Shown piece by piece: positions 11,734 to 30,619 of a stretch of DNA of 32,000 nt (position 1 is its first letter; each line of letters starts with the position of its first letter). Source of the stretch: an uncultured Candidatus Odyssella sp. (GTDB lineage: Bacteria; Pseudomonadota; Alphaproteobacteria; Bin65); contig CAYZSG010000008.1 of the NCBI GenBank assembly GCA_964481045.1, positions 18,956 through 50,955 of the forward strand. The letters are read 5' to 3'. The position numbers and the translations under genes were made by a program. The notes beneath the pieces are model-generated. The model saw only the letters and a program-made list of their open reading frames with translations, did not search any database and was not told where the DNA came from.

Positions 11734-12681
11734 ATGTTTTGTTCTAATCAAGAGAACCCCGCCGCCTTGACAGGCCGCGCCCGCCGTTGTGTCTCGTCGC
11801 CCTTCATCGTACGCGCACGGACACCGACCTTGGCCACCGCCGCACCCACCGCCGAAACGCCGTCCGGCAAGGGCGCCGGGGACGAGAACTTCCCGGTCGG
11901 CTCATTCCTGCTGCCGAAGGCGCTGCGGCCGCGCGTGGCGATCTTCTACGCCTATGCGCGCGCGATCGACGATATCGCCGACAATCCCGAACTCTCCGCC
12001 GAGGAGAAGATCGCGCGCCTCGACGGCTTCGACCGCGCGCTGACCGGGGCCAGTGACGACCCCGCCTACGCCAAGGCGATCCGCGTGCGCGAGACGATGG
12101 CCGGCACCGGCGACATCATCCGCCATTGCCGCGACCTGATCCTCGCGTTCAAGCAGGACGCGGTGAAGCTGCGCTACAGGGACTGGGACGATTTGATGGG
12201 CTACTGCATCAAATCCGCCGCGCCCGTGGGCCGCTTCCTGCTGGATCTGCACGATTGCCCGCCGAGCGGCTATCCCGCTTCCGACGCGCTCTGCAACGCG
12301 CTCCAGGTCATCAACCACCTCCAGGATTGCAAGGAGGATTTCCGGCGGCTCAACCGCGTCTATCTGCCCGGCGATTGGCTGGCGGCGGAAGGCAGCGCGG
12401 TGGAGGATCTCGACCGCGCGGCGGCGACGCCGGGTCTGCGCCGCACGCTCGACCGCTGCCTCGACGGCACCGAGGCGCTGCTGCGCGAGGCGAAGACCTT
12501 GCCGGGCAAGCTTCCGAACCGGCGCCTCGCGATGGAATCGGCCGCGATCGTGAGCCTCGCCGAAAAGCTGACCGCGATGCTGCGCCGGCGCGACCCCGTG
12601 GCCGGGCGCGTGGCGCTGGGCAAGCCGGGCACCCTGTTGCACGCGCTGATCGGCGTGGCCCGCTACTGGCTCTGGCGCTGA
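11734..12681 (+). CDS. hpnC: Hydroxysqualene synthase HpnC (squalene/phytoene synthase family)
   Basis: GDENFPVGSFLLPKALRPRVAIFYAYARAIDDIADN is the first Asp-rich motif, and QDCKEDFRRLNRVYLPGDWL is the second. It lies next to hpnD, hpnE and shc. The start is uncertain: the ATG at 11734 lies in AT-rich, non-coding-looking sequence. The in-frame TTG at 11830 (ATAAPTAETPSGKG...) or the TTG at 11767 are alternatives. Confidence 0.85.
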   Translation: MFCSNQENPAALTGRARRCVSSPFIVRARTPTLATAAPTAETPSGKGAGDENFPVGSFLLPKALRPRVAIFYAYARAIDDIADNPELSAEEKIARLDGFDRALTGASDDPAYAKAIRVRETMAGTGDIIRHCRDLILAFKQDAVKLRYRDWDDLMGYCIKSAAPVGRFLLDLHDCPPSGYPASDALCNALQVINHLQDCKEDFRRLNRVYLPGDWLAAEGSAVEDLDRAAATPGLRRTLDRCLDGTEALLREAKTLPGKLPNRRLAMESAAIVSLAEKLTAMLRRRDPVAGRVALGKPGTLLHALIGVARYWLWR

Positions 12682-12682
12682 C

Positions 12683-13843
12683 GTGCTGACGATCCTTGCC
12701 GGCGCGGGGCTCGCCGCCTGGGCCTACCTCGTGCTGTTCCACGGCGGCTTCTGGCGCGCCGATCAGCGATTGCCGGCCGAATCGCAAGCGCCCGAGCAAT
12801 GGCCCGATGTTACGGCCGTCATCCCCGCGCGCGACGAGGCGCCGGTGATCGGCGGCGCGGTCGAAAGCCTGCTGCGGCAGGACTATCCCGGCAATTTGCG
12901 CGTGATCGTCGTGGACGATGCGAGCAGCGACGGCACCGCCGATGCGGCCCGCGCGGGCGCCGCGCGTGCCGGCGCAGACGACCGGCTCGCCATCGTTTCC
13001 GCGCCGCCGCTGCCGCCGGGGTGGAGCGGCAAGCTCTGGGCCGTGCACAATGGCGTGGCCGCAGCGCCGGCCGACCGGCGCTATGTGCTGCTCACTGACG
13101 CCGACATCGTGCATGCGCCCGATGCGCTGCGGCGGCTCGTGGCGAAGGCCGAGAGCGGACTCGATCTCGTTTCGCTGATGGTGCGGCTGCATTGCGCCAG
13201 TTTCGCCGAGCGGCTGCTGATCCCGGCCTTCGTGTTCTTCTTCCAGAAACTCTACCCGTTTCCGTGGGTCAACGACCGCGCGAAGCGCATGGCCGGGGCG
13301 GCCGGCGGCTGCATGCTGGTGCGGCGCGCGGCGCTCGAGCGCGCCGGCGGCATCGCGGCGGTGAAGGACGCGCTGATCGACGATTGCGCGCTGGCGGCGC
13401 TGCTCAAGAAGAACGGCCCGATCTGGCTCGGCCTCGCCGAGCGCACCGTCAGCGTGCGGCGCTACCCGCGGATCGCCGATGTCTGGCGCATGGTGGCGCG
13501 CACTGCCTACACGCAGCTTCGCCATTCGCCGTGGCTCGTGCTCGGCACGGTGCTCGGCATGGCGCTGCTCTACCTTGTGCCGCCGCTGGCGATGGTGCTG
13601 TGCCCGTTTGCCGGCGCCTGGCTCGCCGCCGCGCTGGGCGCCGCCGCCTTCGCGCTGATGCTGTACGCCTATCGCCCGACCTGGACGCTCTACCGGGGCG
13701 ACGATCCCGCGATCCTGCTGCTGCCGCTCGCCGCGCTGCTCTACACGGCGATGACCGTCGACTCGATGCGCCGCCACCTGCTCGGCAAGGGCGGCGCGTG
13801 GAAGGGCAGGACGTATGCGAGGCAGCGACCGGGCGCTTCCTAG
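12683..13843 (+). CDS. hpnB: Hopene-associated family-2 glycosyltransferase HpnB-like
   Basis: N-terminal TM helix followed by VTAVIPARDEAPVIGGAVESLLRQDYPGNLRVIVVDDASSDGT, PLPPGWSGKLWAV and LLTDADIVH. There are several C-terminal TM helices. The GTG start lies 1 nt after the hpnC stop (TGA 12679..12681). Confidence 0.75.
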   Translation: MLTILAGAGLAAWAYLVLFHGGFWRADQRLPAESQAPEQWPDVTAVIPARDEAPVIGGAVESLLRQDYPGNLRVIVVDDASSDGTADAARAGAARAGADDRLAIVSAPPLPPGWSGKLWAVHNGVAAAPADRRYVLLTDADIVHAPDALRRLVAKAESGLDLVSLMVRLHCASFAERLLIPAFVFFFQKLYPFPWVNDRAKRMAGAAGGCMLVRRAALERAGGIAAVKDALIDDCALAALLKKNGPIWLGLAERTVSVRRYPRIADVWRMVARTAYTQLRHSPWLVLGTVLGMALLYLVPPLAMVLCPFAGAWLAAALGAAAFALMLYAYRPTWTLYRGDDPAILLLPLAALLYTAMTVDSMRRHLLGKGGAWKGRTYARQRPGAS

Positions 13844-13861
13844 AAAGTCGGCAGCGTGCGT

Positions 13862-13985
13862 GCGTCCATCCTTCGAGGCCGCCGCAAGAGCGGCGGCACC
13901 TCAGGATGAGGCACTCTTTGCTCGATCAACCTCGGCCTCATCCTGAGGTGCGCGCCTTCTCGGGCGCGCCTCGAAGGATGGACGC
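13862..13985. repeat. Nested palindromic intergenic repeat element, copy 1 (MITE/REP-like)
   Basis: The outer 17-bp arms, gcgtccatccttcgagg (13862..13878) and cctcgaaggatggacgc (13969..13985), are perfect reverse complements. So are the inner 16-bp arms, cacctcaggatgaggc (13897..13912) and gcctcatcctgaggtg (13935..13950). Each half also carries its own GC hairpin: gccgccgc-aaga-gcggcggc, and cgcgcc-ttctcg-ggcgcg. Similarity to copy 2 continues for about 15-20 bp on both flanks. Confidence 0.9.
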
Positions 13986-14040
13986 GAACGAGACGCGCGA
14001 CTTCTAAAGCCTTCCCGTCGGCGCCGCGCGCCCCTAAAAC

Positions 14041-14907
14041 GTGCCCGTGACCAACACCCTCACCGCCACCGATTTCGAAGCGCGCGACCATGTGCACAAC
14101 GTGGTCGAGGCGTCGGGCACGTCGTTCATGCAGGGCATGCGCCTGCTGCCCGAGGAGCGGCGCGAGGGCATGTTCGCCGTCTATGCGTTCTGCCGCGAGA
14201 TCGACGACGTCGCCGACGAGCCGGCGCCCGTTGCCGACAAGATGACGCGCCTGCGCGAATGGCGGCGCGAGATCGAACGCATCTACGAAGGCAAGCCGCA
14301 GACGCTGACCGGCCGCGCGCTGCTGCCGATCGTGCGGGAATACGGCCTCGACCGCGCCGATTTCCTGGCACTCATCGACGGCATGGAGATGGACGCGGTG
14401 GAAGACATCCGCGCGCCCACCATCGCGCGGCTCGAGCTCTATTGCGACCGCGTCGCCGGCGCCGTGGGGCGGCTTTCGATCCGGGTCTTCGGCGCCGTCG
14501 AGCCGCAGGCGAAATCGGTGGCGCGGCATCTGGGCCAGGCGCTTCAGCTCACCAATATCCTGCGCGACCTGAAGGAAGACGCCGAGCACGGGCGGCTCTA
14601 CCTGCCCGCCGAGCTCCTCGACGCGAACAGCGTGAAGACGCGCGAGCCGTTCGAGGTCCTGCGCCATCCAGCGCTCGGCGCGATCTGCGCCGAAATCGCC
14701 GCGCGCGCGCGCCAGCACTATCAGGCGGCGGCCGAGGCGATGCGCAAATGCCGGCGCGGCCCGATGCGCCCGGCACGCGCAATGGGCGCCATCTACCGCG
14801 CCTATCTCGACGGCCTCGATCGCCGCGGCTGGACGAAGCTCGACGAGAAGGTGCGGCTCTCGAAGCTCAAAAAGGTTTGGATCGCGCTGCGCTACGGGCT
14901 GTTCTAG
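14041..14907 (+). CDS. hpnD: Presqualene diphosphate synthase HpnD (squalene/phytoene synthase family)
   Basis: ASGTSFMQGMRLLPEERREGMFAVYAFCREIDDVADE and LRDLKEDAEHGRLYLPAELL. The GTG start at 14041 has no clear SD, and the GTG at 14047 is also possible. Confidence 0.85.
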   Translation: MPVTNTLTATDFEARDHVHNVVEASGTSFMQGMRLLPEERREGMFAVYAFCREIDDVADEPAPVADKMTRLREWRREIERIYEGKPQTLTGRALLPIVREYGLDRADFLALIDGMEMDAVEDIRAPTIARLELYCDRVAGAVGRLSIRVFGAVEPQAKSVARHLGQALQLTNILRDLKEDAEHGRLYLPAELLDANSVKTREPFEVLRHPALGAICAEIAARARQHYQAAAEAMRKCRRGPMRPARAMGAIYRAYLDGLDRRGWTKLDEKVRLSKLKKVWIALRYGLF

Positions 14908-14953
14908 TGCGCGGGCGCTCGAGTGGCGGCATTGACGTGTCGACGCTGTGCTG

Positions 14954-15077
14954 GCGTCCATCCTTCGAGGCGGCCCCAGGTGGGGCCGCACCTCGGGATG
15001 AGGGCTATTTGTTCGAACAAGTAATGCCTCATCCTGAGGTGCCGCCGCTCTTTGCGGCGGCCTCGAAGGATGGTCGC
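14954..15077. repeat. Nested palindromic intergenic repeat element, copy 2
   Basis: gcgtccatccttcgagg (14954..14970) pairs with cctcgaaggatggtcgc (15061..15077) with 1 mismatch. cacctcgggatgaggg (14989..15004) pairs with gcctcatcctgaggtg (15026..15041) with 2 mismatches. The sub-hairpins are cggcccc-aggt-ggggccg and ccgccgc-tcttt-gcggcgg. The central loop contains the perfect palindrome ttgttcgaacaa. Confidence 0.9.
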
Positions 15078-15124
15078 AAGCGAGGCGCCGCCGAATCGTT
15101 CCGGCTGACTCGGCTGAAGCCGCT

Positions 15125-16390
15125 ATGACTCTCACGCCCTCATCCACCGTCCACGTCATCGGCGCCGGGGTCGCCGGGCTTTCGGCCGCGGTGCGCGCGT
15201 GCGAGGCGGGCGCGCGCGTGATCGTGCACGAGGCGGCGGGCCAGGCCGGCGGACGGTGCCGCTCGTTCCACGACGATCTGCTCGGCGCCGAGATCGACAA
15301 CGGCAATCACCTGCTGCTCTCGGGCAACCGTTCGGCAATGCGCTTCCTCGCGACTGTCGGCGCCGCGCGCGAATTGCTCGTGATGCCGACCGCGGCGATC
15401 CCGTTCCTCGATCTCGAGACCGGCGAGCGCTGGACCGTGCGGCCGAATGCCGGGCCGATCGGCTGGTGGATCTTCACGCCGGGCCGCCGTGTCGCCGGCA
15501 GCCGCGCTTCGCACTATCTCGCGGCCATCAGGCTGGCGCGCGCCGGCAACGCCAGCGTCGCCGATCTTTTCGGCCGGCAGACGCCGACCTTCCGCCGCTT
15601 CTGGGAGCCGCTGGCCGTGGCCGTGCTCAACACCGCCGCCGCCGAGGGCGCGGCAAAGCTGCTGTGGCCGGTGATGACCGAAACCATCGGGCGCGGCGCC
15701 GCCGCCGCCCGCCCCTGCATCGCGCGCGACGGGCTCTCCAAGGCATTCGTCGATCCCGCGCTGAAGTGGCTCGCCGCGCGCGGGGCCGAAATTCGCTTCA
15801 ACGACCGCCTGCGCGCGATGCGCATCGAAGACGGGCGCGCGGCGGCGCTCGCGTTCGGCGAAGGCGAAACGGCGCTGGGGCCGGACGACCGCGTGGTGCT
15901 GGCCGTGACGCCGCCGGTGGCGTCCTCGCTGCTGCCGGGGCTCGCGGTGCCCGACGATTTCCGGCCGATCGTGAACCTGCACTACAAGCTCGCGGCGCCC
16001 GCCGCGCTGCCGGGCGGCCTGCCGCTGCTCGGCCTCGTTGGCGGCACGGCGCAATGGCTGTTCGTGCGCGCGAACATCCTCTCGGTCACGATCAGCGCCG
16101 GCGAGCGCGAGGTGGATCAGTCGGCCGAAACCCTGACCGAAACGGTGTGGCGCGACATCGCGAAGGCACTGGCGCTCGGCAACGCGCCGCCGCCGCCCTG
16201 CCGCGTGGTGAAGGAGAAGCGTGCGACCTTCGCGCAGACGCCGGCGCAGGTGGCGAAACGGCCGAAAGCCAATGCCGGCCCGCGCAATCTCGTTCTCGCC
16301 GGCGACTGGACCGACACCGGCCTGCCGGCCACGATCGAAGGCGCGATCCGCTCGGGCGAGACCGCGGTCCAGGTGTTACGGAACGTATAA
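15125..16390 (+). CDS. hpnE: Hydroxysqualene dehydroxylase HpnE (FAD-dependent amine-oxidase-like oxidoreductase)
   Basis: N-terminal dinucleotide-binding fold VHVIGAGVAGLSAAVRACEAGARVIVHEAAGQAGGRCRSF, a C-terminal LAGDWTDTGLPATIEGAIRSG, and a position between hpnD and shc. Confidence 0.85.
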   Translation: MTLTPSSTVHVIGAGVAGLSAAVRACEAGARVIVHEAAGQAGGRCRSFHDDLLGAEIDNGNHLLLSGNRSAMRFLATVGAARELLVMPTAAIPFLDLETGERWTVRPNAGPIGWWIFTPGRRVAGSRASHYLAAIRLARAGNASVADLFGRQTPTFRRFWEPLAVAVLNTAAAEGAAKLLWPVMTETIGRGAAAARPCIARDGLSKAFVDPALKWLAARGAEIRFNDRLRAMRIEDGRAAALAFGEGETALGPDDRVVLAVTPPVASSLLPGLAVPDDFRPIVNLHYKLAAPAALPGGLPLLGLVGGTAQWLFVRANILSVTISAGEREVDQSAETLTETVWRDIAKALALGNAPPPPCRVVKEKRATFAQTPAQVAKRPKANAGPRNLVLAGDWTDTGLPATIEGAIRSGETAVQVLRNV

Positions 16391-16511
16391 CCCCGCGCGC
16401 AATTCGCGCGGCCGGACCGGCTTGACCGCGCCGAGGCCCGCGTTTATCTCAATCGCGCCCGGGCCTTACCCTGAGTGGAGGCCCGGTTCGCTTTTGCCGT
16501 ATTTTGACAGC

Positions 16512-18464
16512 ATGAACATCCACACCCCCCGCCCGGCCGAGCCCGACCTTGCGGCGCTCGATACGTTGATCGCCGAGCAGGCCGGCCGCCTCGAAGCCGA
16601 GCAGCGCGGCGACGGCCATTGGGTGTTCGAGCTCGAGGCCGACGCGACGATTCCGGCCGAATACATCCTCTATCGCCACTTCCTCGCCGAGATCGACGAC
16701 GCGTACACGCGCGACCTCGAACCGAAGATCGCGGTCTATCTCCGCCGCATCCAGGGCGCGCATGGCGGCTGGCCGCTGTTCCATGGCGGCGATTTCGACA
16801 TGAGCGCGTCGGTGAAGGCCTATTTCGCGCTGAAGGCCGCGGGCGATTCGCCGGACGCGCCGCACATGGCGCGCGCGCGCGCGGCGATCCTCGCGCGGGG
16901 CGGCGCCGAGCGCAGCAACGTATTCACCCGCTCGCTGCTGGCGCTGTGGGGCGAGGTGCCGTGGCGCGCCGTGCCGGCGATGCCGGTCGAGCTGATGCTG
17001 CTGCCGAAGTGGTTTCCGTTCCACCTGAGCAAGGTGTCGTACTGGTCGCGCACGGTGATCGTGCCGCTCGTCGTGCTGATGGCGCTGAAGCCGCGCGCGA
17101 AGAACCCCAAGGGCATCCGCATCGCCGAGCTCTTCCAGCAGCCGCCCGAGAGCGTCCGCGACTGGCACAAGAATCCGACCGGGCGCTTCGCCGGCAACGT
17201 GCTGCTGAAGCTCGACCGGGTGTTCCGCGCGCTCGAGCCGGCAATGCGCGGTCGACGCCGCCGGCGCGCGATCAAGCGCGCGATGGATTTCGTCGAGGAG
17301 CGCCTGAACGCCGCGGACGGCCTCGGCGGCATCTTCCCGGCGATGGTCAACGCCGTGCTGGCGATGGAAGCGCTCGGCTACGCCAAGGACGATCCGCGCC
17401 TCGTCACCGCGAAGAAGGCCGTGGACGGCCTGCTCATCGAGAAGGAGCGCGAGGCCTATTGCCAGCCCTGCGTTTCGCCGGTGTGGGACACCGGCCTCGC
17501 CGCGCTGGCGATGATGGAAGCCAAGAACGAGCGCGAGAGCCCGATGATGGCGAAATGCGCCGACTGGCTGCTCGAGCGCGAGATCAAGGACGTGAAGGGC
17601 GACTGGTCGTGGCAACGCCCCGGCCTGGCGCCCGGCGGCTGGGCGTTCCAGTACCGCAACGACTACTATCCGGACGTCGACGACACCGCCGTGGTGGCGA
17701 TGGCGCTCGACCGCATGAACGATCCGCGCGCCAAGGCCGCGATCCAGCGCGCCGAAGCGTGGATCCTCGGCATGCAGAGCAAGAACGGCGGCTGGGGCTC
17801 GTTCGACGCCGACAACGACAAGTATTACCTCAACAACATCCCGTTCGCCGATCACGGCGCGCTGCTCGATCCGCCGACCGCCGACGTGAGCGGCCGCTGC
17901 CTCGCGATGCTCGCGCAGCTCGGCTACAAGAAGACCCATCCGGCCGTCGCGCGCGCGATCGAGTATCTCAAGAACGAGCAGGAGGCGGACGGCTCGTGGT
18001 TCGGCCGCTGGGGCACGAATTACGTTTACGGCACCTGGTCGGTGCTGACCGCGCTCAACGCCGTCGGCGAGGATCCGCAGCAGCCCTACATCCAGAAGGC
18101 GATCGCGTGGCTGAAATCGCGTCAGCGCGGCGATGGCGGATGGGGCGAGGACGGCGCCACCTATTGGCAGGAGCGCCGCGCCGAGGCGAAGGAAAGCACG
18201 CCCTCGCAGACGGCGTGGGCGACCTTGGCGCTGATGGCCGCCGGCGCCATCGACGACGAGGCCGTCGCGCGCGGCATCGCCTATCTCCAGGACGCGCCGC
18301 GCGAGGGCGTTCGCTGGAAGGAAGAGTGGTACACGGCGGTCGGCTTCCCGCGCGTGTTCTATCTCCGCTATCACGGCTACGCGGCCTATTTCCCGCTCTG
18401 GGCGCTGGCGCGCTATCGCAACCTGAAGCGCCGCAACGCGCGCTCTGTCTCCTGGGGCCTCTGA
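16512..18464 (+). CDS. shc: Squalene-hopene cyclase
   Basis: The catalytic DxDDTA motif (YYPDVDDTAVVAMAL), repeated QW motifs (QGAHGGWP, QSKNGGWG, QEADGSWFGRWG, QRGDGGWGE), and the N-terminal GDGHWVFELEADATIPAEYIL. The inner ATG at 16512 (MNIHTPRP) is in frame with track ORF 16221..18464. The upstream part of that ORF overlaps hpnE and is not credible. Confidence 0.95.
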   Translation: MNIHTPRPAEPDLAALDTLIAEQAGRLEAEQRGDGHWVFELEADATIPAEYILYRHFLAEIDDAYTRDLEPKIAVYLRRIQGAHGGWPLFHGGDFDMSASVKAYFALKAAGDSPDAPHMARARAAILARGGAERSNVFTRSLLALWGEVPWRAVPAMPVELMLLPKWFPFHLSKVSYWSRTVIVPLVVLMALKPRAKNPKGIRIAELFQQPPESVRDWHKNPTGRFAGNVLLKLDRVFRALEPAMRGRRRRRAIKRAMDFVEERLNAADGLGGIFPAMVNAVLAMEALGYAKDDPRLVTAKKAVDGLLIEKEREAYCQPCVSPVWDTGLAALAMMEAKNERESPMMAKCADWLLEREIKDVKGDWSWQRPGLAPGGWAFQYRNDYYPDVDDTAVVAMALDRMNDPRAKAAIQRAEAWILGMQSKNGGWGSFDADNDKYYLNNIPFADHGALLDPPTADVSGRCLAMLAQLGYKKTHPAVARAIEYLKNEQEADGSWFGRWGTNYVYGTWSVLTALNAVGEDPQQPYIQKAIAWLKSRQRGDGGWGEDGATYWQERRAEAKESTPSQTAWATLALMAAGAIDDEAVARGIAYLQDAPREGVRWKEEWYTAVGFPRVFYLRYHGYAAYFPLWALARYRNLKRRNARSVSWGL

Positions 18465-29128: not shown

Positions 29129-29596
29129 GCGCGCCTCCGACCGATCGCCGGAGGCCACTCTGCAAAACTTCGCAGGCGAGGACAATCGCGCCGACTTTGA
29201 CCGACTGGAAATCAGGCGGCGATTCGGCCCGGCCCCTGGCGCGCCGGCAGGGCGGGCCCACAACGCTGCGATACGCGGCGTATTCCCGTCGTTGGCGCCG
29301 GGACGTGGCTGGGCGACCCGCCCCGGCAAGGCTGCATTCGGTTTCTACATAGAATCGCCTCCGGCGCCACCCGGCGGGTTGGCCTTTCTGCACCGCGCCG
29401 GCCAGTGCGGTTCGCGCCGTTTGCGAGTCGATCCGTTTTGCTGCGTACCCCCTTGACGCCGCGGAGGGGTGCAACCATCTCCCTACCAATCTGAGTCCGG
29501 GCCCCTCTGGCGGCGGAACGTTCCGCCGCGATGTCGGACTCCACCTGCGCGCTGATGCCCAGCCTTTGGGCAGGCGCCGCATCTGGAGGCGTCGAC

Positions 29597-30619
29597 ATGG
29601 ATTCCGTCTGGCTCTGGCTCGGCTTCAATCTCTTCGTTCTCGCGCTGCTCGCGTTCGATCTCGGCGTTCTTCATCGGAAAGAGCGCGCGATATCGGTCCG
29701 CGAGGCAGTTTGGCTCAGCGCAGGCTATGTCGCGCTCGCGGCGGTCTTTGCCGCCGGCGTGGTCCATTTCCGGGGAGCGCAGGCCGGGTATGAGTTCGTA
29801 ACCGGCTACCTGATCGAGAAATCGCTCTCGCTCGACAATGTCTTCGTCTTCTACCTGATATTCGCGCATTTCGCCGTGCCGCCCGCCTACCAGCACCGCG
29901 TGCTGTTCTGGGGCATCCTGGGCGCACTCGCGATGCGCGCGGCGCTGATCGCGGCCGGCGCGGCGCTGATCGCGACGGTGCATTGGATCGTGTTCGTGTT
30001 CGGCGCGTTCCTGATCCTCACCGCGGTGAAGATGCTGCTTGCGGCCGATGCCGAGCCCGATCTCGAGGGCAACCGCATCGTGCGCTTCGTGCGCGCGCGG
30101 TTGCGCGTCACGCCCGACTATCGCGGTCCGCGCTTCTTCGTGCGCGAGGCCGGGCGCGTTTCGGCCACGCCGCTCTTTCTCGTGCTCGTGCTGATCGAGT
30201 TCAGCGATCTCGTCTTCGCGGTCGATTCGATCCCCGCGATCTTCGCAGTGTCGAGCGACCCGTTCATCGTCTACACCGCGAACGTGTTCGCGATCCTGGG
30301 GCTGCGCGCACTGTATTTCGCGCTCGCCGGCATCGTCGGGAGATTCCGCTATCTCAAGTACGGTCTCTCGATCGTTCTGCTCATCGTGGGCGCCAAAATG
30401 ATCGCCAACGGGGTCGCCGGCGAGAAACTCATCCCGGTCGAAATCGCGCTTCTGCTCACGGCCCTCGTGATCGGCGGCTCGATCTTGCTTTCGATGCTGC
30501 GGCCGGCGCCTGTCAGCCGCACGCCCGCCGTCGGCTGGGTACCGGGCTCGGGAACGCGCCCGGCCGTCGAAACCGCGTCTCCCGATAGAACACTCAACTC
30601 GCAAACGGAAAGGAGCTGA
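29597..30619 (+). CDS. TerC/Alx family integral membrane protein
   Basis: Inner ATG at 29597 with GGAGG 7 nt upstream. The protein begins MDSVWLWLGFNLFVLALLAFDLGVLHRK, and YEFVTGYLIEKSLSLDNVFVFYLIFAHFAVPPAYQHRVLFWGILGALAMRAAL is the TerC signature region. Confidence 0.85.
   Translation: MDSVWLWLGFNLFVLALLAFDLGVLHRKERAISVREAVWLSAGYVALAAVFAAGVVHFRGAQAGYEFVTGYLIEKSLSLDNVFVFYLIFAHFAVPPAYQHRVLFWGILGALAMRAALIAAGAALIATVHWIVFVFGAFLILTAVKMLLAADAEPDLEGNRIVRFVRARLRVTPDYRGPRFFVREAGRVSATPLFLVLVLIEFSDLVFAVDSIPAIFAVSSDPFIVYTANVFAILGLRALYFALAGIVGRFRYLKYGLSIVLLIVGAKMIANGVAGEKLIPVEIALLLTALVIGGSILLSMLRPAPVSRTPAVGWVPGSGTRPAVETASPDRTLNSQTERS

Follow-up and report, generated by a model that had tools for sequence, protein, structure and literature searches.

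Two nested palindromes around hpnD in a hopanoid operon as probable members of a class-wide family of intergenic repeats in Alphaproteobacteria

Why should both spacers around a single gene of a hopanoid operon be filled by the same elaborate palindrome? The question arises in a 32,000-nt stretch of DNA from an uncultured Candidatus Odyssella sp. (GenBank assembly GCA_964481045.1, contig CAYZSG010000008.1, positions 18,956 to 50,955), hereafter called the window, in which the hpnB-hpnD and hpnD-hpnE spacers are both occupied by palindromes of ~124 bp, or ~155 bp counting their outer stems. We found that the two palindromic copies flanking hpnD are real as first described in a sequence-only reading of this DNA. 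Our own reading, to which we assign a probability of about 0.8, is that both elements are members of a large, class-wide and non-autonomous family of nested-palindromic intergenic repeats, which resembles the repetitive extragenic palindromes (REPs), bacterial interspersed mosaic elements (BIMEs) and REPINs of other bacteria and has spread in a hairpin-dependent manner.

The sequence-only reading had placed two nested palindromes of ~124 bp at 13862-13985 (copy 1) and 14954-15077 (copy 2), and sequence inspection together with a repeat search found both cores there. Each core is an inverted pair of 51-nt units, with 22 nt between the units in copy 1 and ~22 nt in copy 2. The unit consists of CCATCCTTCGAGG, a GC hairpin and CCTCAGGATGAGG or, in its longer arm form, of GCGTCCATCCTTCGAGG, the hairpin and CACCTCAGGATGAGGC. 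Similarity between the copies and internal complementarity persist for ~17 nt past the core ends, giving full elements at ~13845-14003 and ~14936-15093. Their parts are listed below; contigs used for comparison are numbered with the prefix L.

13845-14003, no strand: copy 1, full element with its outer, less conserved stem (~159 bp); 13845-13850 pairs with 13998-14003 in the fold; direct-repeat families D1/D4; alignment with L018, L069 and L070.
13862-13912, plus strand: copy 1 left unit (U+), GCGTCCATCCTTCGAGG, hairpin and CACCTCAGGATGAGGC; inverted repeat I1; arm matches; an identical unit is present in L018, another genome.
13879-13896, no strand: inner hairpin CCGCCGC-AAGA-GCGGCGG of the copy 1 left unit, from sequence and fold.
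13913-13934, no strand: copy 1 central spacer (loop), a TTGnTCGAnCAA-like mini-palindrome conserved in the window's sublineage; alignment A1 and spacer list.
13935-13985, minus strand: copy 1 right unit (U- on the plus strand) with inner hairpin CGCGCC..GGCGCG at 13951-13968; repeat search, arm matches and fold.
14936-15093, no strand: copy 2, full element with outer stem in the hpnD-hpnE spacer; fold; direct-repeat families D1/D2/D4; an orthologous copy with the same flanks is present in L118 (HpnD 98% identical).
14954-15004, plus strand: copy 2 left unit with inner hairpin CGGCCCC-AGGT-GGGGCCG at 14971-14988 and one change in the 3' arm (CCTCGGGATGAGG); sequence, repeats and arm matches.
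15005-15025, no strand: copy 2 central spacer with palindrome TTGTTCGAACAA; inverted repeat I23, alignment and spacer list.
15026-15077, minus strand: copy 2 right unit with inner hairpin CCGCCGC-TCTTT-GCGGCGG at 15042-15060 and outer end GGTCGC, not GGACGC; sequence, repeats and arm matches.

All four inner hairpins proved perfectly self-complementary, as first listed, and the left unit of copy 1 is the reverse complement of the right unit of copy 2 except for a 1-nt indel in the loop (inverted repeats I3/I4), in agreement with the near-identity noticed earlier. Within the window, CCATCCTTCGAGG has four exact matches, all inside the two copies, and CACCTCAGGATGAGG has four matches at up to two mismatches, against 0.05 expected; this number was equaled in 0/100 shuffles.

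That these elements form a repeat family extending beyond the locus had been proposed, and the census bears this out. The exact pattern CCATCCTTCGAGG-N10-30-CCTCRGGATGAGG was scanned over one genome per species, and the counts given are lower bounds. At least 113 stretches were found in at least 72 assemblies, all of them alphaproteobacterial where named and distributed over many orders, with a few labeled only Proteobacteria or Pseudomonadota. Hosts among the matches listed included Xanthobacteraceae, Bradyrhizobium, Ancylobacter, Methylorubrum, Bosea, Devosia, Roseibium, Marinicaulis, Parvularculaceae, Zavarzinia, Reyranella, Magnetospirillaceae and Rhodobacterales; complete genomes rich in the repeat are, e.g., those of Zavarzinia sp. 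CC-PAN008 (NZ_CP173678), Roseibium OZ246005 and Ancylobacter oerskovii. The same matches and the window together contained 211 units (at up to two mismatches per arm) with 181 distinct inner sequences. Exact or near-exact counterparts of the window's units, with the same outer stems and loop core TTGnTCGAnCAA, were located at unrelated loci in L018, L069 and L070, all from metagenome-assembled genomes (MAGs) of 70% GC, and window-type elements with the same loop and outer stems were also located at unrelated loci in soil metagenome contigs L138, L141 and L170. Plasmid records contributed two carriers (two Methylobacterium replicons) and 2.9 million viral contigs contributed three, and on these numbers a plasmid- or phage-borne origin was rejected. 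As a side observation, L018 and L069 belong to JAEULD01, a MAG of 70% G+C that is labeled Candidatus Odyssella sp. MAG-112 and carries the exact repeat subfamily of the window. Odyssella belongs to Holosporales, which are low in GC, and the label of this MAG looks doubtful given its G+C content.

Scanning metagenomes for GGATGAGG-loop-CCTCATCC, the centre of a dimer, added 68 stretches (contigs L126-L193). Many of these represent a sister family with outer arms GCGTCCTTCGAC, inner arms GCTCAGGATGAGG and a conserved central loop CTTTGTGCCACAAAG, whose outer ends read CTGCAT or CTGGGAT, ~18 nt outside GCGTCC; L129:2507-2587 and L134:3288-3368 are examples. Its members range in size from 81 bp, as simple palindromes that lack side hairpins, to 145 bp, with one side hairpin or two. 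A side hairpin is thus an optional module with a fixed position.

The 135 elements examined for organization included 49 '<>' dimers (CCATCC ends facing), 24 '><' dimers (GAGG ends facing), 60 single units and one head-to-tail arrangement. Both copies of the window are of the '><' type. Linkers of '<>' dimers were tightly distributed at 21-24 nt. Many dimers were heterodimers of a conserved 'type B' unit (inner sequence CTCGCTNCGCTCGCA) and a unit with a variable perfect hairpin, and their linkers were conserved within a lineage. In the window's sublineage, the pair, its conserved central loop and the outer stem behave as one element of ~155 bp. By crude gene calls, 52 elements lay between tandem genes, 35 between convergent genes, nine between divergent genes and ten within genes, at a median distance of 57 nt past the upstream stop codon. 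Thus, the family consists of dispersed short imperfect palindromes that are extragenic, mostly located between tandem or convergent genes, and paired in inverted orientation through characteristic linkers. E. coli BIMEs follow the same pattern with another sequence.

What does the family conserve? Its basic module is an imperfect hairpin of ~40-55 nt (39-58 nt over the arm-to-arm match). A CATCC/GGATG stem is followed by an asymmetric internal loop (TTC opposite a single A), a GAGG/CCTC stem and a variable GC-rich inner stem-loop, so that the outer stem has 5+4 bp with an interruption and the inner stem 5-8 bp. Arms and asymmetric loop are invariant across several orders, and the inner stem is free to vary yet paired; it differs in sequence and length, usually has one or two unpaired bases on its 3' side, and occurs in two coexisting registers. 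Inner stems were perfect in 110 of the 211 units. At least five perfect inner pairs were present in 97 of the 211, compared with 1.8% of shuffled inner sequences. Covariation was counted in 49 units of equal length, with 500 column shuffles and slid-partner controls. Inner stems were paired in 88.7% of cells, compared with 81.6% after shuffling, and double-sided changes numbered 56, compared with 27.7; neither value was reached in any of the 500 shuffles. When the partner was slid by one to three columns, pairing dropped to 34-47%. The earlier proposal of selection for hairpin structure thus found support in compensated inner stems. The outer helix covaries within the unit as well, as CATGG/CCATG (three times), CATGC/GCATG, CGTCC/GGACG (three times), CATAC/GTATG and CACCC/GGGTG. 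At least nine dimers combine one unit that has a compensated arm variant with a canonical partner. Because arm variants compensate inside one unit, the hairpin of each single unit is probably what is conserved, and family-wide this interpretation is supported by the covariation pattern.

The sequence-only reading had pictured a transcript folding into one long hairpin with two side hairpins, and RNA structure prediction, which it had suggested, was run for both copies. The minimum-free-energy folds agree with that picture: they are four-way junctions of an outer helix, two side hairpins and a central helix, with -112.2 kcal/mol for copy 1 and -113.8 kcal/mol for copy 2, and are far more stable than shuffles (z of about -10.9 and -10.3; 0/200 shuffles as stable). 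The composite junction at about -112 kcal/mol compares with about -60 kcal/mol for two isolated units and -77 to -79 kcal/mol for two halves with flanks; the inner hairpins are common to the composite junction and to unit-wise folding. However, at the level of the family, covariation backs each 51-nt unit folding on itself.

Inner stems also revealed a strand asymmetry. On the CCATCC strand, non-Watson-Crick oppositions comprised 133 pyrimidine-pyrimidine and nine purine-purine cases, including 34 tandem T.C/C.T, although these counts are of non-independent events since many units descend from a common 'type B' ancestor. The commonest loops on this strand were TTC, TGC and TCC, and the complementary strand accordingly reads tandem G.A/A.G and GAA, GCA or GGA triloops closed by C-G. 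Tandem G.A oppositions and GNA triloops are unusually stable in single-stranded DNA, d(GCGAAGC) being the classic mini-hairpin. Orientation relative to the upstream gene was unbiased (21 versus 18 for single units and 8 versus 7 for heterodimers), which argues that the asymmetry is not tied to the mRNA strand and leaves a strand-specific mRNA role unsupported. As a lead only, the asymmetry leans towards a process at the level of DNA.

We now turn to the hopanoid locus and its relatives. The genes concerned, all above curated cut-offs, are these.

12683-13843, plus strand: hpnB (TIGR03469, 549 bits versus a cut-off of 379); its stop codon is 1 nt before the outer stem of copy 1.
14041-14907, plus strand: hpnD (TIGR03465, 347 bits versus 279), intact and bracketed by the copies; homologues are 98-82% identical.
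15125-16390, plus strand: hpnE (TIGR03467, 376 bits versus 283), intact; it starts 47 nt past the core of copy 2.

The three gene names given earlier hold, as all exceed the NCBIfam cut-offs. The neighborhood runs tgt and queA (minus strand), hpnC, hpnB, copy 1, hpnD, copy 2, hpnE and shc. The hpnC-hpnB-hpnD-hpnE-shc genes occupy 11734-18464, with the glycosyltransferase gene hpnB between the two squalene-synthesis genes and a gap of 1 nt between hpnC and hpnB. The order of these five genes is common to L114-L116; in L117 (HpnD 69% identical), hpnC and hpnD are adjacent, without hpnB.

Relatives were taken as a graded series of HpnD homologues whose contigs were compared, with an order of descent that rests on HpnD identity only. 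The two spacers were filled as follows (HpnD identity in brackets).

Window: hpnB-hpnD, dimer of the window's family; hpnD-hpnE, dimer of the window's family.
L118 (98%): hpnB-hpnD, a different, CGTC-3-like repeat; hpnD-hpnE, the window's family at the same place with the same flanks.
L119-121 (94%): hpnB-hpnD, a CGTC-3-like repeat in L121; hpnD-hpnE, a third family (GAGAGACCTCCATCCCGGCCTTCCCCCGC...).
L122 (91%): hpnB-hpnD, the window's family, with the window's right unit on the left; hpnD-hpnE, contig ends 49 nt past the hpnD stop.
L114, L123-125 (90%): hpnB-hpnD, empty, 39 nt; hpnD-hpnE, empty, 5 nt.
L115 (85%): hpnB-hpnD, a single palindrome CCATCCTTCGAGG-CCGCCGCTCTAGCGGCGG-CCTCGAAGGATGG; hpnD-hpnE, the same third family.
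L116 (82%): hpnB-hpnD, empty; hpnD-hpnE, 422 nt of yet other palindromic repeats.

The order tgt-queA-hpnCBDE-shc of L114 and L123-125 is the same as in the window, and hpnE starts only 5 nt after hpnD in the relatives without the repeat (gene table of L114). A longer contig with the same HpnD as L122 has an hpnD-hpnE spacer of 220 nt. Judged by presence and absence in close relatives, the comparison shows the two copies as apparent insertions into the spacers flanking hpnD, and the spacers themselves as insertion-prone, permissive hot spots with fast turnover by gain, loss, replacement and rearrangement. Several details illustrate such turnover. The dimer of L122 abuts a conserved CCTAAAAC motif, and the window, unlike L122 and L115, still has the ancestral spacer on the right-hand side of copy 1, which argues for separate insertion events. 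In L115, 3924-3967 is a perfect 44-bp palindrome in which the two outer arms of the family are joined by one hairpin, CCGCCGC-TCTA-GCGGCGG, and which looks as if a deletion from one side hairpin to the other had collapsed a dimer. Compared with copy 2, the element of L118 has near-identical arms and a right unit that differs at 1/51 positions, in a setting of coding DNA that is 96% identical. Its left inner stem (L118:1236-1253 versus 14971-14988 of the window) shows two compensated G:C to C:G flips, with further differences in the loop and central spacer. Such changes could result from rapid compensation or from gene conversion by a further copy of the repeat.

The other occupants of the same spacers are palindromic repeats, too. 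Upstream of hpnD, L118:30-250 and L121:1-150 contain the repeat GTCATCCCGGGC... / ...CACCCGGGACGAC, which resembles the published CGTC-3 family, and further unrelated nested palindromes, e.g. of the GAGCGACCCCCATCCCGACCTTCCCCCGC...GCGGGGGAAGGTTGGATGGGGGTCGCTC and CCTCCCCCGCAAGCGGGGGAGGG types, were observed in hpnD-hpnE spacers (L115:4885-4975, L119:905-975 and L116:2960-3330). Close relatives with spacers empty or differently filled argue against an hpn-specific role, and a conserved regulatory device at these spacers is not indicated by the relatives compared.

How could such a family spread? Target-site duplication was sought as direct repeats of 2-8 nt at offsets 0-3, which occurred near chance, and none was seen by eye at the outer termini; in the sister family, none was found at any offset or at the outer CTGCAT/CTGGGAT ends. 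We propose that the family spreads through a DNA process that depends on the hairpins and does not duplicate the target site. Most likely, an enzyme acting in trans would read the conserved arms and loop in single-stranded DNA, as the REP-associated tyrosine transposase (RAYT) does for REPINs. In the window, stable hairpins would then be transcribed within a polycistronic hpnCBDE-shc mRNA, where they could slow 3'-to-5' decay or create processing sites. Insertion of copy 2 would have changed the hpnD-hpnE spacing from 5 nt to 217 nt, and any close translational coupling would be lost. Any such effects on hpn mRNA would be side-effects, not the reason why the elements are there.

Several points weigh against this interpretation. 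The 32-kb window holds only these two copies. No mobilizing gene was found by tblastn in 0.89 Mb of DNA around the repeats. Gene contexts came from a crude GC3-based caller, which did not call hpnE in the window. Conservation of exact 13-mers in several orders could point to a selected host function instead of mobility. Besides, with HpnD identity as the sole basis for descent, ancestral presence with precise loss may compete with independent insertion at the hpn locus.

The search for a mobilizing gene used seven queries of RAYT and related tyrosine transposases (TIRYT), taken from supplement 5 of PMC3733652, and gave no match at E < 0.2 in the 0.89 Mb of flanking DNA; a single-copy gene could easily lie elsewhere. 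This result bears on the strictest form of the REPIN explanation, in which a cognate RAYT (IS200-like Y1/HUH), encoded once and elsewhere in each genome, copies the inverted REP pair. The architecture agrees well with it: two inverted REP-like hairpins with a short spacer form a whole that folds into one long hairpin, target-site duplications are absent, and in the sublineage of the window the doublet as a whole, loop included, replicates as one conserved unit and recurs elsewhere with identical outer stems, all as in REPINs (Bertels & Rainey 2011, PMC3116915; PMC5581495). The asymmetry of mismatches (133 versus 9), the GAA/GCA/GGA loops and the lack of orientation bias fit recognition of single-stranded DNA, not of mRNA. 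Against it, the flanks of the 211 units from at least 72 assemblies revealed no RAYT homologue, and a conserved GTAG tag is absent, the positions 5' of CCATCC reading variously gctg, gcgg, acga, ggc and others. REP sequences that depend on a RAYT tend to be confined to one genus, whereas the present arms are identical across orders and their distribution is far wider than that of a typical REPIN-RAYT pair. In addition, Alphaproteobacteria are reported to have few RAYTs of Group 1, and a clear association with REPs is limited to Groups 2 and 3 (PMC5581495). We regard this strict version as unlikely.

A different explanation is that the units are sites selected by the host, used by a conserved factor (nucleoid, gyrase/IHF-type binding or stabilization of mRNA 3' ends), with spread being secondary. 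In its favor, arms and loop are invariant next to a variable but paired inner stem, copies are overrepresented past stop codons and underrepresented between divergent genes, and roles of this kind have been reported for E. coli REP/BIME (PMC5082802). On the other hand, the spacers of close relatives are empty, and unrelated repeat families appear interchangeable there. Density also differs greatly, with two copies in the 32 kb of the window compared with 3-4 elements (5-7 units) per 8 kb in the Xanthobacteraceae MAG JARBUD01. Units show no orientation bias relative to mRNA, and terminator features are missing: a scan of the spacers found only 5-bp CCTCAGGATGAGG mini-stems inside copy 2, with no T-tract after either element, and the rho-independent terminator reading of these GC-rich hairpins was rejected for lack of a following T/U tract. 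No sigma-70-like promoter was found in a scan of the two spacers. Host selection as the primary cause is, in our view, improbable.

One further idea deserves mention as a speculation on which we would place little weight. The family might mark an undescribed, class-wide hairpin-recognition system, in which an enzyme other than RAYT, or a DNA-binding protein, reads the arms and the TTC/A loop in single-stranded DNA. If this were true, such a protein would copy, flip or convert modules, which fits the strand-asymmetric tandem G.A oppositions and GNA triloops; it could explain why orthologous copies differ by compensated G:C to C:G flips although their DNA is 96% identical (window versus L118) and why CGTC repeats are likewise found without a transposase.

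The sequence-only reading had called the elements MITE/REP/BIME-like and transposase-less. Nothing transposase-like lies beside the two copies in the window, and the REP/BIME part of the comparison, extended to REPINs, fits. The classical MITE part, an internally deleted insertion sequence (IS) whose long terminal inverted repeats are mobilized by a DDE transposase, fits less. Whole elements are palindromes of 81-186 bp and thus have the size and terminal inverted repeats of MITEs; composites of 80-160 bp are near-perfect palindromes with defined termini, such as the sister ends, and are polymorphic for presence among relatives. However, the 2-8-bp target-site duplications that MITEs leave did not exceed chance. 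Moreover, 60 half-elements stand alone, and dimers come in both orientations with different linkers, which is unexpected for a deleted IS. No transposase was seen next to any copy, and plasmids and viruses hardly carry the family. This origin is quite improbable.

Intercistronic hairpins are known to set segmental mRNA stability in alphaproteobacterial operons, e.g. the Rhodobacter puf operon. The notion that the copies are locus-specific cis-regulatory RNAs (attenuators or processing sites) tuning hpnD relative to hpnB and hpnE, for which this precedent, the filling of both spacers of one gene and the extremely stable folds would speak, is very unlikely and appears largely refuted by comparative data, as the element recurs at many unrelated loci in many taxa, relatives with 90% HpnD identity lack both copies, others carry different repeats, and neither an Rfam family nor a U-tract was found. 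In Rfam 15 at the gathering threshold, the only match in the window was terC at 29489-29546 and none involved the repeats, for which a permissive scan gave just generic long-hairpin plant miRNA models far below threshold. A K-turn reading of the TTC/GA loop was rejected by inspection, since the opposing strand gives Watson-Crick G-C and A-U pairs, not tandem G.A. The terC motif itself (RF03067, plus strand, 64.6 bits versus a gathering threshold of 39.9) lies directly upstream of a gene for a TerC/Alx family membrane protein (29531-30619, plus strand; TIGR03718, 396 bits) and is an ordinary riboswitch-gene pair.

Has the family been described before? Like E. coli REP/BIME, it comprises many extragenic imperfect palindromes, mostly after stop codons between tandem or convergent genes and without an internal transposase, and forms inverted heterodimers ('type B' plus a variable unit) with conserved linkers of 21-24 nt. 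It differs in its unrelated sequence, the missing GTAG tag, a longer unit (40-55 nt) that is nested, with a conserved outer helix and asymmetric loop around a hypervariable inner hairpin, and arms conserved over a whole class, not one family. CGTC repeats have 8-9-bp stems starting with AT, 4-5-nt loops, a CCA tail and an unpaired CGTC/TGTC/CCTC tag (Di Nocera et al. 2013, PMC3733652). They, too, are alphaproteobacterial, found in all orders, mostly arranged as inverted dimers with 20-100-bp spacers, and devoid of transposase genes (PMC3733652). The present unit departs from them in sequence, in its bipartite stem and in its nested hairpin, and its GCGT or GCGTCC start is confined to the window's sublineage. 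CGTC-3, which encodes VIPGLDPGIH-type peptides, is the GTCATCCCGGGC... element (PMC3733652), and a CGTC-3-like element occupies the same hpnB-hpnD spacer in L118 and L121. CGTC-1 to CGTC-4 were rejected because their anatomy differs and the present peptides are absent from the tables of PMC3733652. Br-REP1 and Br-REP2 of Bradyrhizobium japonicum (Hahn et al. 2016, PMC5082802) are palindromes that Bradyrhizobium and Rhodopseudomonas carry in intergenic regions and 3'-UTRs. Some are composites of three stem-loops, and like the present family they are quick to shift in abundance between relatives. Their consensus sequences (CCGGAATCTCGAGATTCCGG and CGAGATTCCGGGTTCGGCTCTT-CGAGCCGCCCCGGAATGA) differ, on which ground they were rejected, and they are restricted to Bradyrhizobiaceae (PMC5082802). 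RIME, known here through papers citing it, was set aside, with no Rhizobiaceae among the matches listed. A 2024 survey of prokaryotic MITEs makes no mention of Alphaproteobacteria or the related taxon names looked for, and literature searches with strings of the arm sequences, related motifs and peptides gave only chance matches in unrelated papers. No published description of the family was found in the papers searched, and it is best read as REP/BIME/REPIN-like in kind and as only a possible member of the RAYT-dependent class.

For annotation, open reading frames that cross the copies are spurious. Of the peptides first attributed to them, HPEVR...RRMDA does lie in one frame; SFEA and LRMR exist, although in different frames in these copies. 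The occurrence of such peptides in hypothetical-protein annotations, as first suggested, was not confirmed, as a protein-database search with a 51-aa spurious peptide across the copies returned no candidate.

For the hopanoid operon, then, the repeat is a common intergenic element, fairly ordinary and not hpn-specific, and the long spacers in an otherwise compact operon are repeat insertions rather than regulatory inventions. Two copies in the same orientation, 0.97 kb apart, are a potential substrate for loss of hpnD. Contigs of related organisms break at these repeats; the short metagenome contigs L118 (1335 bp) and L122 (1251 bp) stop at or just before a repeat, as is typical of multi-copy assembly breaks. 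Operons of the window type and of the L114 type offer natural pairs with and without the elements for the question of segmental mRNA stability. What is mildly interesting is the family itself, which is class-wide and has compensated hypervariable hairpins and strand-asymmetric mismatches that hint at recognition in single-stranded DNA. It shows how common and conserved palindromic repeats without a transposase are in Alphaproteobacteria, and its model of sequence and structure (asymmetric loop, free but paired inner stems and asymmetric mismatches) can be used in seeking the factor that spreads or uses it.

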